A stretch of DNA of 64,000 nucleotides from an uncultured Gammaproteobacteria bacterium (GCA_964645825.1 CAZXZY010000001.1:17362-81361); one strand, 5' to 3'. Shown: positions 27,911 through 31,347, counted from the first letter of the stretch. Program-made: numbers and translations. Notes: generated by a model not told the origin, from the sequence alone.

Positions 27911-28702
27911 TTATTTTTTAGCTAAAAATTGAATGGCGCTACCAAGACCTGGAAATATCTTAGCTAAAGTACGATGCTCTAATTTCAAATATGCTTTATA
28001 TATCTTTAAAAATCCCCTAGCCTCTGTCCGCGGCAAGTAATCGTAAGTATAAAATTGTTCTATTTTGAATCCTGTTTTTATTAAAGCTTGCTTCATTTGA
28101 CTTGGCAGAAAAACTTCGGCATCAGGCTCAATCATTTCTGGTGGCACAGTTTTTTGTGCTTTAAAAATATTTAAAACTCTAGTAATTAGTCTGACTAAAA
28201 TCCATAAATAAAAAAATGGATTAAACCATCTATGATAATTTGCATTAGGCTCACCCAAAATTATAAACTTGCCTTCCGGTTTTAAAACTCTGTATATTTC
28301 TTGAAAAGTTTTGTTCATAGCAAAAAAGTGATGCAACGAACCATTAATAACTACTAAATCAAAAAAATTATCTTGATAAGGCAAATTCACAACTTCACCT
28401 AAAGTAAAATTGACTTGCGGATATTTTTGCTTAGCAATATTTAAAACTTCTTCAGATAAATCAATACCATAAACTTCTTCAGATACTTGCAATAAACTAT
28501 TTGTCAGTCTTCCTGTGCCACAGGCTACATCTAAAGATTTGTTTACTTTATTATTTTTTAGAAATTTTTTAAGATTAACAAAATTCCAAGCATCAACTAT
28601 TTTAGCAGACTCGGTTTCTGTATGCCAAGCATCGTATTTAGCAGCTGTAGCATTATAATAATCTCGCTGAACTTGCTTTTTTTGTTGATAATTATCTTGC
28701 AT
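27911..28702 (-). CDS. class I SAM-dependent methyltransferase
   Basis: Motif I LDVACGTGRLT, motif II DLVVINGSLHH, post-I acidic residue. Confidence 0.75.
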   Translation of the reverse strand: MQDNYQQKKQVQRDYYNATAAKYDAWHTETESAKIVDAWNFVNLKKFLKNNKVNKSLDVACGTGRLTNSLLQVSEEVYGIDLSEEVLNIAKQKYPQVNFTLGEVVNLPYQDNFFDLVVINGSLHHFFAMNKTFQEIYRVLKPEGKFIILGEPNANYHRWFNPFFYLWILVRLITRVLNIFKAQKTVPPEMIEPDAEVFLPSQMKQALIKTGFKIEQFYTYDYLPRTEARGFLKIYKAYLKLEHRTLAKIFPGLGSAIQFLAKK

Positions 28703-28736
28703 AACAGCGAAATTATCTCATTTCTTAGGCTTTGTG

Positions 28737-28772
28737 TCAAAAAGAAAAGCCGCGATCGTGCATACGATCGCG
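28737..28772 (-). terminator. GC-rich intrinsic terminator of the small acidic ORF
   Basis: ccgcgatcg-tgcata-cgatcgcgg, then U-run on the minus strand. Confidence 0.5.
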
Positions 28773-28788
28773 GACTTCAAGTCTTTGA

Positions 28789-29043
28789 TTAGACATGTGC
28801 CTGTTGACAGAGCTCATCTATCTCAGCATCCAAAACTGTCCATTCAGCTGCTGTTAGATGAACGGTGTCATCGATGTCTTCTACGGCTTCTGGCCCCTGC
28901 TCTTTCATGTTAGATGCGCCAAGTTTGCATAATCTCTCCCAGAATGCAATTCTGGCCGCATCATCTGGACTGACATTGATCAGTCTCTGCATTGCGTGCT
29001 CCATGAATTTGCTTACAGTACCTCCTACCATGTTTCTGTCCAT
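28789..29043 (-). CDS. hypothetical acidic 84-aa protein, compositionally atypical (about 47% GC)
   Basis: Intact ORF with its own terminator. GC content is far above the roughly 31% background. No recognised motif. Confidence 0.4.
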   Translation of the reverse strand: MDRNMVGGTVSKFMEHAMQRLINVSPDDAARIAFWERLCKLGASNMKEQGPEAVEDIDDTVHLTAAEWTVLDAEIDELCQQAHV

Positions 29044-29096
29044 TTTCTCGCCCTTTCGTTTTAGTGTGTCAAGAACTAAGATTTTTAATATTTACC

Positions 29097-29162
29097 ATCT
29101 TCTCTATGTTTTGTCAATCATAACTAAATTTAATTGATTGACTAAGTAAAGTAAATATTTTA
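29097..29162. promoter_or_regulatory. divergent promoter pair: TTGACT-17-TATAAT for tRNA-Gln on the plus strand, and TTGACA-17-TAAATA on the minus strand for the small ORF
   Basis: The two -35 boxes form the inverted repeat tgtcaatca-N16-tgattgaca. The plus-strand -10 TATAAT lies 8 nt before the tRNA 5' end. Confidence 0.45.
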
Positions 29163-29176
29163 TAATATTTTCACGT

Positions 29177-29250
29177 TCGGGGATCGTCTAATGGTAGGAC
29201 GACTGGTTCTGGTCCAGTTAATCGGGGTTCGACTCCCTGTCCCCGAGCCA
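29177..29250 (+). tRNA. tRNA-Gln (anticodon CUG), CCA encoded
   Basis: Manual cloverleaf: acceptor TCGGGGA/TCCCCGA, D-arm GTCT-AATGGTA-GGAC, anticodon arm ACTGG-TTCTGGT-CCAGT, T-arm CGGGG-TTCGACT-CCCTG, discriminator G, CCA. Confidence 0.8.
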
Positions 29251-29332
29251 AACGAACGAAGTGAGTGCAGGCTCGGGATTATAGATCCGAGTCGAAAACG
29301 AGGCTCCTAAGATGCTGTGCAATAGCGCAGCG

Positions 29333-29345
29333 CCCCGAGCCAAAC
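29333..29345 (+). repeat. 13-nt direct repeat of the tRNA-Gln 3' end (ccccgagccaaac), 92 bp downstream of the first copy at 29241-29253
   Basis: Exact 13-mer duplication. The intervening 79 bp contains two short hairpins. Confidence 0.6.
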
Positions 29346-29383
29346 AAAAAATCGCCTAACTGGCGACTTTTTTATTTTATATT

Positions 29384-29824
29384 TTAGTTAAACTTTTTAT
29401 CAATGCTGGCAACTTGTGTGTGCTCGCGCCTAACTTCTGAAATTTTTAATGAAGCAATAAGTAGCATTAATAATGTATGAAAAAAACCTAAAAACATAGC
29501 TGCAAAAGCAACTGAATCCATTGATATGTCAATAAGTAATGCAAATAAGATTGAACTGATTGTACTTAAAATTAATAAAACCACACCCAATGTGACAGAC
29601 ATGATTTTAAAATTGGTTGGCTTTTTTATTTTACGCTTTAAAAAGTTTAAAAGGAGATAATAAAAAAATAAGAATACTAAACCAAAAGTACCTACAATAA
29701 GTGATTCACCCTCAACACCGCGATCTGATAATACACCAAAAATAATAAAAGCTATCAAAATCCATATAACAAAGATCGTTATCTTTTCAGATCGTGATTT
29801 TTTTGTTTTGTTTAATTTGCTCAT
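29384..29824 (-). CDS. 4-TM membrane protein, unknown function
   Basis: Hydrophobic profile only. Confidence 0.4.
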   Translation of the reverse strand: MSKLNKTKKSRSEKITIFVIWILIAFIIFGVLSDRGVEGESLIVGTFGLVFLFFYYLLLNFLKRKIKKPTNFKIMSVTLGVVLLILSTISSILFALLIDISMDSVAFAAMFLGFFHTLLMLLIASLKISEVRREHTQVASIDKKFN

Positions 29825-29853
29825 AGTATAAAAATTAAAATTTGATTACACTT

Positions 29854-31347
29854 TTACAAAACTTCTCCACCAAAAGTATCAACTGCATCCCCCACCTCTT
29901 CTTCTTGACTACCTTTGAATTTTTGTTGATTAGTTTTAAAATCTTCGTCTATTTTTAGCACTGTTTTGATTGAACGGCCTAAAATATTAGTTAAATTTTT
30001 ATTTATTTCTTCAGCTACACCTGGCTTATCTAATTGCTCAATATGAAATGGATATTCAAGGCCTACGGTAATAACTTCTGTTTGAATATCTAATGGATGA
30101 GCACTTTGAATGATGCCGGCCAGAGAAGAGTTCAATGGCTTCAAGGCGCTTACTAATTCAGTCCATTGTTTTTGTAAACTAACATAGTCTTTATTATCTA
30201 TAGCTAGAGTTTGAGCTGTTGTAGTGACAGTTGGCTCTGGACTAGCAATGTCAGCTGTAGCTAATAAAAATTCAATGCAAGCTAATTCTAATGGCAATTG
30301 ATCGATTACAACAGCTTGTTGGCTTTGAACTTTAGCTAATAGTATATTTAATAAACGGGAAATATCAGCTAAAGGAAAATTAGAGGCATGTTTTTTGATC
30401 ATTTCTACGAAATGTTCATCAAATTCTAGCTGAAAATCAGCTCCAATAACCTGATAAAGCATAATTTGACGAGTATATTCGATCAAATCCGAAGTCAAAC
30501 TATCTATATCTACACCTTCAGCTACTAATTTATTGATTTGATTTAATACAGCTGGCAGATTGTGCATCCGTAAGCCCTCAACTAAAGCGTCTATTTCTTG
30601 CCAATTATTACGTGGCAAAACTAGAGAAATCAAATCATCAGTCACTTGACCATGAGACAAAGCAATGATCTGTCCCAAAAGTGATTCAGCATCACGCAAA
30701 CATCCTTCTGAGCGACGAGCGATTTGAGTCAAAACTTTATCATCGATAGTTATTTTTTCCCATTCTATAATCTCACTTAACCTCTTTACTACATCAGCTA
30801 AAGGGATTTTTTTGAAATCAAAACGCTGACAACGAGAAATGATTGTTTCTGGTACTTTATGAATTTCAGTTGTAGCTAAAATAAATATCACTCGCTTTGG
30901 TGGCTCTTCAAGAGTTTTGAGTAGAGCATTAAAAGCGGATTTGGAAAGCATGTGGACTTCATCGATCACAAAAACTTTATAGCCGTTTTTGTTGAAAGGT
31001 GGAACTTGAGCATTGGCAATAATATTTTCTCTAACATTGTCCACTCCAGTATGCGAAGCGGCGTCAATTTCGATCACATCCAAAGTTTGATTATGCAAAA
31101 AGTTTTCACAAGCCTGGCAAACATTACATGGCTCACTAGAATCATCCTTACGATCAAGACAATTTAATGAGCGTGCAAAAAGACGGGCCAAGGTAGTCTT
31201 GCCCGTTCCTCTGGGACCTACAAATAAGTAAGCGTGAGCGATTTGCCCAGAAGTGATCTCACTCTGCAAAGTAACTTTAATTGGCCGTTGGCCAACTACT
31301 TCTTTGAAGAGCTTCGGTCGATATTTTCGGTAAATGACTTCAGACAT
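29854..31347 (-). CDS. dnaX: DNA polymerase III subunit gamma/tau
   Basis: YRPKLFKEVVGQ, Walker A GPRGTGKTT, zinc module CNVCQAC, SRC motif. Confidence 0.9.
   Translation of the reverse strand: MSEVIYRKYRPKLFKEVVGQRPIKVTLQSEITSGQIAHAYLFVGPRGTGKTTLARLFARSLNCLDRKDDSSEPCNVCQACENFLHNQTLDVIEIDAASHTGVDNVRENIIANAQVPPFNKNGYKVFVIDEVHMLSKSAFNALLKTLEEPPKRVIFILATTEIHKVPETIISRCQRFDFKKIPLADVVKRLSEIIEWEKITIDDKVLTQIARRSEGCLRDAESLLGQIIALSHGQVTDDLISLVLPRNNWQEIDALVEGLRMHNLPAVLNQINKLVAEGVDIDSLTSDLIEYTRQIMLYQVIGADFQLEFDEHFVEMIKKHASNFPLADISRLLNILLAKVQSQQAVVIDQLPLELACIEFLLATADIASPEPTVTTTAQTLAIDNKDYVSLQKQWTELVSALKPLNSSLAGIIQSAHPLDIQTEVITVGLEYPFHIEQLDKPGVAEEINKNLTNILGRSIKTVLKIDEDFKTNQQKFKGSQEEEVGDAVDTFGGEVL

Follow-up and report, generated by a model that had tools for sequence, protein, structure and literature searches.

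An 84-codon gene, here called ORF84, lies beside tRNA-Gln in the 64,000-nucleotide stretch of DNA analyzed here (the window) and was probably gained laterally in this species' lineage after the split from its sister species. The reading rests on synteny and base composition: the sister and five further relatives carry a different gene in the same slot, and ORF84 is the GC maximum of an AT-rich window. The relatives of DnaX, encoded nearby, put the source organism within Patescibacteria/Parcubacteria. ORF84 belongs to a family of small proteins, all of whose named hosts are CPR bacteria.

The gene and its signals

Features of the locus are listed below, with positions counted from the first letter of the window.

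28712-28740, minus strand: putative promoter of the class-I methyltransferase gene downstream of ORF84, TTGACA-17-GATAAT with TG; left cassette edge
28740-28773, minus strand: ORF84 intrinsic terminator, a 10-bp perfect GC-rich stem with a 4-nt loop and a T-run
28743-29175, no strand: lineage-specific segment of 433 nt (promoter region, ORF84 and terminator), delimited by blastn against the sister contig
28789-29043, minus strand: ORF84 coding sequence, 84 aa plus stop, ATG start, from the ORF list
29047-29056, minus strand: Shine-Dalgarno-like AAAGGGCGAG, read from the sequence, with 3 nt between its end and the ORF84 ATG
29065-29075, minus strand: direct repeat TTCTTGACACA, a 10/11 match to TTTTTGACACA at 28733-28743 (repeat family D4)
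29089-29117, minus strand: candidate ORF84 promoter, inferred from a perfect -35 TTGACA (29117-29112), a 17-nt spacer and a weak -10 TAAATA
29138-29166, plus strand: putative tRNA-Gln promoter, TTGACT-17-TATAAT, 11/12, within the lineage-specific segment
29177-29250, plus strand: tRNA-Gln(CTG) with encoded CCA; right cassette edge
29251-29345, plus strand: tRNA-Gln trailer, conserved, ending in the second CCCCGAGCCA, with a terminator after it at 29352-29366; does not belong to the acquired gene

These signals are best explained by a real, intact, independently transcribed protein-coding gene, for which the promoter is a candidate only. The terminator stem, CCGCGATCGT/ACGATCGCGG at 28750-28773, has a predicted energy of -18 kcal/mol, lies 15 nt from the stop codon and is followed on the minus strand by CTTTTCTTTT. 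The product is acidic (pI 4.48, with 16 Asp and Glu against 7 Lys and Arg). Both the acidic 84-residue ORF and the hairpin described in the initial annotation are thus confirmed, as is the position adjoining a tRNA: tRNA-Gln(CTG) lies 133 nt from the ORF84 start, in divergent orientation.

A scan for consensus promoters returned a 9/12 site at 29144-29117 and missed the candidate ORF84 promoter because the -10 element of the latter is weak. The -35 elements of the candidate ORF84 promoter and the tRNA-Gln promoter together form a palindrome, GTCAATCA-N14-TGATTGAC (inverted repeats I1 and I6). The methyltransferase promoter is kept in the sister species. Its -35 region is TTTTTGACACA, read on the minus strand from 28743 to 28733, and the TTCTTGACACA/TTTTTGACACA copies bracket exactly the GC-rich part of the locus, made up of the 5' UTR, ORF84 and terminator.

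Gene content of the locus in relatives

The sister species is represented by L097, a metagenome contig from the same genome or organism as L007; the L007 contig stops at the locus, while L097 spans it. Identity between L097 and the window is 89% for the methyltransferase and 84% for DnaX. The order in L097 is tRNA-Gln (minus strand), a Gmad2-domain gene (182 aa, PF10648, E 1.4e-11), a 119-aa ORF read from the other strand, and the methyltransferase gene. In blastn comparison, homology stops at 28742 of the window (2961 of L097) and resumes at 29176 (1886 of L097), so that 433 nt in the window stand for 1074 nt in the sister, comprising the Gmad2-domain gene and the 119-aa ORF. One breakpoint falls exactly at the 5' end of tRNA-Gln and the other inside the methyltransferase promoter.

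All six relatives compared at the slot (L097, L008, L009, L010, L016 and L022) have a Gmad2-domain gene between tRNA-Gln and the methyltransferase gene and lack ORF84 there; with the sister among the six, the Gmad2 state is ancestral by parsimony. Five of them (L008, L009, L016, L022 and L097) share the order DnaX, tRNA-Gln, Gmad2-domain gene, methyltransferase, SecD, and the slot gene encodes 190-232 aa with the Gmad2 domain in L008, L009, L016 and L022. In L010 a 184-aa Gmad2-domain gene follows the tRNA, and ORFs of 189 and 706 aa come next before the methyltransferase. Orthologs at the same locus with similar GC, which had been named beforehand as the sign of an old, constrained gene, were found in none of the six, and no member of the ORF84 family was found at any of 80 loci of DnaX relatives. 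No residue of the Gmad2-domain gene or of the 119-aa ORF was detected in the 64-kb window, the sole part of this genome visible.

The 119-aa ORF of L097 (2526-2885, minus strand) has 38.6% GC and no Pfam match, and is convergent with the Gmad2-domain gene. It is absent from L016 and L022, and is therefore a second lineage-specific gene in the same slot.

Linkage of DnaX to tRNA-Gln is kept through the clade, while the orientation of the tRNA varies. DnaX followed by tRNA-Gln was seen in essentially all fetched Patescibacteria relatives (L008-L028, L097 and L173), with the tRNA inverted relative to DnaX in the window and in L097, L016, L022, L024 and L025. Between DnaX/tRNA-Gln and methyltransferase/SecDF, gene content differs in every relative, and further ORFs of raised GC occur inside. 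The interval looks like a local hotspot of gene turnover. Its variable part spans 7500-9542 in L009, 7518-11031 in L010, 7488-9502 in L016, 5795-6679 in L020, 5639-5881 in L008 and 7543-7779 in L022. The 189-aa ORF of L010 has 45% GC in a contig of 32.5% GC, and the L008 and L022 intervals have in common an ORF of 78-80 aa with 42-43% GC.

On either side of the locus, at roughly 20-26 kb and 32-36 kb, the window carries two pairs of genes, each for a DUF8128 protein and a TrwB/VirD4-type coupling ATPase domain (PF10412, PF02534). A HARE-HTH/sigma-70 region 4 protein is encoded next to SecF.

Base composition and codon usage

GC content is 46.7% in ORF84, 42.6% across 28737-29130, the span flagged in the initial annotation, and 34.2% on average in the window. 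The annotation had set about 47% against a background of about 31%; the first figure stands, and the second is too low for the window as a whole, though the genes immediately flanking ORF84 have 27-32% GC. Over the 64 kb, 255-nt windows have a mean GC of 0.342 (sd 0.040). The maximum, 0.486, falls on ORF84, and only 0.3% of these windows reach the GC value of the gene. The remaining peaks mark MreB-like genes, whose GC3 is normal, and tRNA-Gln with its trailer. Within the lineage-specific block, GC is 47.2% at 28743-29043 against 25.0% in the 132 nt upstream of ORF84 (29044-29175).

Third codon positions deviate as well. GC3 is 0.45 in ORF84, compared to 0.254 +/- 0.030 in 49 genes of the window (maximum 0.33) and to 0.30 expected from the residues of ORF84 under host usage. 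The synonymous-codon log-likelihood of ORF84 under host usage, -1.257, is lower than that of 381 of 381 84-codon chunks of host genes. Windowed GC and codon scoring, the checks proposed along with the claim of foreign composition, thus both place ORF84 at the extreme of its surroundings. The composition is not ameliorated. At host codon usage the residues of ORF84 alone would give 42% GC, so that about three fifths of the GC excess comes from amino-acid composition and about two fifths from codon choice.

Escherichia coli avoids AGA and strongly prefers CTG. All four Arg codons of ORF84 are AGA, and its six Leu codons are all different, with CTG used once, so the codon usage is not enterobacterial-like, as had been suggested.

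A family of small proteins in CPR bacteria

A word-indexed protein search with ORF84 returned only ORF84 itself, and an exhaustive phmmer search found nine small proteins of the same layout. Two rounds of profile searching extended the family to 53 and then 97 clusters of proteins of roughly 80 aa. Two giant repeat proteins in the representative search, P0002 and P0003, were rejected as repeat-inflated artefacts. The family consensus is MxTVRDFK...FWxKLNRLGARN-x4-PPExVPDIDATVxL-x3-EW-x2-L-x2-E, and residues G42, D58, T60, V61 and L71 are invariant in both family alignments. Conservation is thus evident at the protein level, down to 30-45% identity across the 97 clusters.

The family hidden Markov model matches the ORF84 frame at E 4.7e-24, and ORF84 aligns over its full length with F-W-x-K-L-N-x-L-G-A-R-N ... 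P-P-E-x-V-P-D-I-D-A-T-V-x-L-x3-E-W-x2-L-x2-E (alignments A3 and A6). It keeps 15 of 20 highly conserved positions, the substitutions being K>R, N>C, R>S, P>G and A>D. With five positions changed against a family median of one, it is among the two most divergent members.

Wherever a taxon name was given for a member it was a CPR name: Parcubacteria Gr01-1014_2, Candidatus Sungbacteria, Candidatus Peregrinibacteria or "Patescibacteria group". Nothing here points to the enterobacterial or other non-CPR donor implied by the initial annotation. ORF84 as a single sequence had no match in Pfam or PHROGs, and 52 family members had none in Pfam, NCBIfam or PADLOC and none of note in PHROGs. No member was found in a scan of IMG/VR, and a sequence profile search of PDB gave nothing better than a Rop variant (E 0.21). 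The N-terminal extensions of four longer homologs (P0010, P0037, P0041 and P0042) are unrelated and lack Pfam matches.

Ten genomic contexts of family members were examined. All differ, and the gene is solitary in each, with a Shine-Dalgarno sequence and a terminator visible at family loci where DNA was available. No neighboring gene or upstream motif is conserved across these contexts, and nucleotide similarity between the cassettes is confined to the ORF. Three members have methyltransferase genes nearby, but these are of different families and their proximity was put down to coincidence. The GC of the gene minus that of its locus, in percentage points, was as follows.

Window: +12.5
L171: +19 (GC3 0.73, z 3.5)
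L173: +12.6 (z 2.1)
L087: +7
L088: +5
L090, L094 and L095: about 0
L091: -4

The family member is thus a sharp GC-rich islet in 3 of the 10 host genomes examined, and since the excess is near zero or negative in four hosts, GC richness is not intrinsic to the family. The GC-rich state is recurrent in AT-rich hosts, as expected of a gene moving between genomes of different GC.

Two of these loci deserve description. The L173 member is again close to DnaX and tRNA-Gln, at a distance of 3 kb, amid small ORFs without assigned identity. The same AT-rich CPR contig has a GC-rich islet at 9817-10176, where a 119-aa ORF of GDVSGISGN-type repeats has 53% GC, and an intergenic one at 6900-7040, whose translation resembles a tRNA fragment. 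In L091 (5504-5898), related to Peregrinibacteria, the family gene is directly downstream of the tmRNA gene, so that a stable-RNA gene adjoins the family member both there and in the window.

The host-like GC and GC3 of the members in L090, L091, L094 and L095 show that there is no family-wide constraint of the kind expected if ORF84 were native and old, its GC richness intrinsic (from residues rich in D, E, A and G, or from selection on mRNA structure or codons), and its absence from relatives due to loss. GC1 is indeed 0.49-0.62 in all family members, the residues of ORF84 by themselves account for the 42% GC given above, and the member is GC-rich in 3 of 10 hosts and mildly so in two more. 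The mRNA also folds better than shuffled controls (z -2.25 for ORF84, -2.95 with its terminator). Against a native origin stand the GC3 of ORF84 (0.45 where 0.30 is expected) and its codon score, both outside the entire host distribution, and the ancestral Gmad2 state found in six relatives including the sister. We consider it unlikely, and lateral gain the better reading.

Predicted structure and possible function

The AlphaFold2 (AF2) model of ORF84 has a pLDDT of 75. That of a typical member, P0068, is a compact bundle with pLDDT 95.5 and pTM 0.84, in which helices are predicted at residues 4-14, 20-24, 28-44, 56-59 and 64-77. Foldseek against PDB gave no match at E < 1.

The loop D-I-D-A-T-V-x-L-x-x-x-E-W resembles the EF-hand of S100 proteins and calmodulin (PS00018) in that it agrees with the pattern at 12 of its 13 positions and leads into a helix, and S100 proteins headed the weak Foldseek list for the first model. 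It differs in that PS00018 matches none of 52 members; 34 of the 52 match once position 6 is freed, and Val61 is invariant. No profile or fold similarity of the family to EF-hand domains was found. An EF-hand identity was rejected because the canonical 12-residue loop, with its Gly-type position 6 and Asp at position 1, is not present. HAD motif I (DxDxT) was rejected as well, the first Asp not being invariant and the protein being helical and 80 aa in length. The searches of PADLOC and PHROGs described above likewise revealed no known anti-phage defense or phage family.

Our guess, made with low confidence, is that the ORF84 product may be a compact, acidic, cytoplasmic helical mini-protein. 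It might work through its near-invariant PPExVPDIDATVxL loop, by binding a metal ion or some conserved partner in the cell and not by catalysis; this too is a low-confidence guess. A small partner- or metal-binding regulator would be the best, if tentative, description.

The tRNA-Gln trailer

The sequence CCCCGAGCCA, from the 3' end of the tRNA, is found twice, at 29241 and 29333, 92 nt apart, where 0.02 occurrences are expected by chance. Both copies sit 3' of tRNA-Gln, away from ORF84, and enclose only an 82-nt trailer. These 82 nt are conserved in L008, L010, L012, L017 and L022 and partly in L097, all without ORF84 (L008 6048-6144, L010 7605-7700, L012 7609-7695, L017 7601-7695, L022 7837-7932 on the minus strand and L097 1702-1811 on the minus strand; about 82-92 nt in length). 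The copies share a predicted fold, a long-range stem in which GGCUCGGG pairs with the second CCCGAGCC around a variable hairpin and a conserved 7-bp hairpin, GCUGNGC-AAUA-GCNCAGC, in which two pairs covary. The trailer had no match in Rfam.

Since the trailer is conserved, with the same fold, in relatives without ORF84, it is not a scar of the arrival of ORF84. The proposed link of the tRNA 3'-end repeat to the acquisition must accordingly be given up: the repeat is on the other (3') side of the tRNA, in a trailer that relatives without ORF84 share.

In L014 a degenerate second tRNA-Gln(CTG)-like copy (7958-8137) directly follows the genuine one. This copy has a mutated 5' acceptor strand and, in the D-loop and T-loop regions, two GC-rich palindromic insertions (CCTCGGCCGTAGCC...GGGCGAGG); between its T arm and 3' acceptor strand it contains the trailer hairpin. 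This arrangement suggests that the trailer descends from a duplicated tRNA gene. From sequence comparison the trailer seems to be an old element derived from tRNA-Gln, and it may be a functional structured RNA. In the sister species the tRNA 3' end and trailer start (CCCCGAGCCAAACGAACG) recur as a third, partial copy downstream of the trailer, at L097 1650-1672 and L007 8375-8397. Directly after its tRNA comes a GC-rich module of another kind (TTCGACTCACTGCGTTCGCTCATGGTCTGCGACCAAG), with similar ones in L016 and L017.

The conservation of the trailer, with compensatory changes, in these relatives without ORF84 also bears on a model in line with the initial annotation, in which ORF84 is the last cargo of a decayed integrase island targeting tRNA-Gln and the repeated tRNA 3' end is the att scar. 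ORF84 does adjoin the tRNA, and the repeat is real. The gene, however, lies 5' of the tRNA and the repeats 3', with only 82 nt between them; no integrase, recombinase or other mobility gene is encoded from DnaX to SecD, where the full set of ORFs consists of those for a DUF4044 membrane protein, ORF84 and the methyltransferase; and ORF84 is intact, not decayed. Such an island would be in keeping with the third partial repeat copy in L097, with the family gene of L173 on the 3' side of tRNA-Gln amid small ORFs, and with the several contigs of this species that end inside the tRNA or trailer, but we judge it improbable.

In AT-rich genomes a GC peak is frequently a structured RNA gene. Window GC peaks also mark the tRNA and its trailer, and with the folding z-scores of -2.25 to -2.95 they might recommend a structured non-coding RNA gene in which ORF84 is fortuitous. 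Rfam gave no match over ORF84 even at E <= 1, and only the tRNA was credible within 28000-30000. The start codon, Shine-Dalgarno-like sequence and stop followed by terminator, the protein conservation over 97 clusters with invariant residues and an HMM match at E 4.7e-24, and the confident predicted fold of one family member make this very improbable.

Independent assemblies

The exact ORF84 protein is indexed in 28 collection blocks, and the gene recurs unchanged in 24 or more contigs assembled from independent metagenomes. The junctions of tRNA, ORF84, methyltransferase and SecD are the same in all six contigs retrieved from JGI, ENA and Logan samples, one of which has a G50R variant. ORF84 is real and fixed in the population. 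It had been called a remnant, a description that does not suit an intact gene with a Shine-Dalgarno-like sequence, a promoter-like site and a strong terminator, carried unchanged by so many contigs. A chimera of assembly or binning that joined foreign DNA to the contig, of which the frequent contig breaks near the tRNA in this population might be a sign, is in effect excluded by the recurrence of identical junctions in independently assembled JGI, ENA and Logan contigs and by the indexing of the gene in 28 collection blocks.

Contigs L001, L003 and L006 (alignment A1), which are independent assemblies, end inside the tRNA-Gln gene or its trailer. Breaks there may reflect repeats or strain variation at that point.

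Origin and route of entry

Horizontal acquisition, as claimed in the initial annotation, is supported by the Gmad2-domain gene that six relatives hold in the slot and by a GC3 of 0.45 against 0.25. No donor was found: the nearest homologs are only 45-61% identical, so that the case for transfer is built on composition and synteny rather than on a foreign copy of nearly the same sequence. Most likely the gene came from another CPR bacterium, and the donor would have been a Patescibacteria genome richer in GC, at roughly 45-55%.

Searches around ORF84 revealed no mobility gene and no att-type repeats. Entry may have occurred by DNA uptake and recombination in the variable DnaX/tRNA-Gln/SecDF interval, not via an integrase. 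The junction may be the TTGACACA -35 box of the methyltransferase promoter, now present in two copies; ORF84 would then have inserted into this promoter by microhomology or target duplication, after or along with loss of the Gmad2-domain gene. The TTCTTGACACA/TTTTTGACACA repeat may mark that insertion junction; by a rough estimate, the probability of such a repeat by chance is roughly 0.05-0.1. The 132 nt upstream of ORF84 are lineage-specific yet AT-rich and host-like, so two steps are possible, a deletion followed by an insertion.

Discussion

Like tRNA-associated genomic islands, the ORF84 segment is foreign in composition, adjoins a tRNA, is missing from close relatives and has a duplicate of the tRNA 3' end in its vicinity. 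Presence and absence among relatives together with deviating GC3 (0.45 vs 0.25), by which genomic islands are recognized, are both found here. The segment differs from such islands in being 433 nt long, with one gene and no integrase, and in lying 5' of the tRNA; the tRNA 3'-end repeat predates it and does not flank it.

The "morons" of temperate phages, described by Hendrix and colleagues, are lone genes of deviating GC that sit between conserved genes and bring a promoter and a terminator of their own. ORF84 would likewise be a self-contained unit, with a candidate promoter, a Shine-Dalgarno-like sequence and a strong terminator; it deviates in GC and is set between conserved neighbors. Unlike a moron it is chromosomal (among DnaX, tRNA-Gln, methyltransferase and SecDF) and has no phage genes around it, and its family is without a match in IMG/VR or PHROGs.

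In a published survey, the single-gene transfers detected for Patescibacteria were mostly among Patescibacteria, with competence and pilus genes proposed as the route (PMC12455944). ORF84 resembles these transferred genes in being a single gene whose relatives are in other Patescibacteria, for which competence is again a candidate route; it differs in that there is no high-identity pair of donor and recipient and in that its family is unannotated. With a family known only from CPR, the event is ordinary gene transfer. As such it is routine, for single hypothetical genes move between Patescibacteria constantly.

The locus provides a clean gene replacement, resolved to the base pair, in a reduced CPR genome without a mobility gene, and flags the DnaX/tRNA-Gln/SecDF interval as a variable spot in this clade. 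Interest lies mainly in the unannotated family and in the neighboring tRNA trailer, which may be a new tRNA-derived structured RNA. The family, conserved and apparently restricted to CPR bacteria, is defined here by about 100 clusters; it has a confident predicted fold with no relative in PDB, and might merit a Pfam entry and experimental work. More speculatively, and we think it doubtful on present evidence, the family might be a CPR-specific single-gene cassette in horizontal circulation, encoding a compact helical mini-protein whose fold is absent from PDB, landing repeatedly as a GC-rich islet in AT-rich genomes and seemingly favoring the DnaX/tRNA-Gln interval (2 of 10 contexts). If that were true, its persistence would suggest a function of benefit to the recipient from the outset, for example in the interaction of host and episymbiont, or in regulating or inhibiting some conserved machine.
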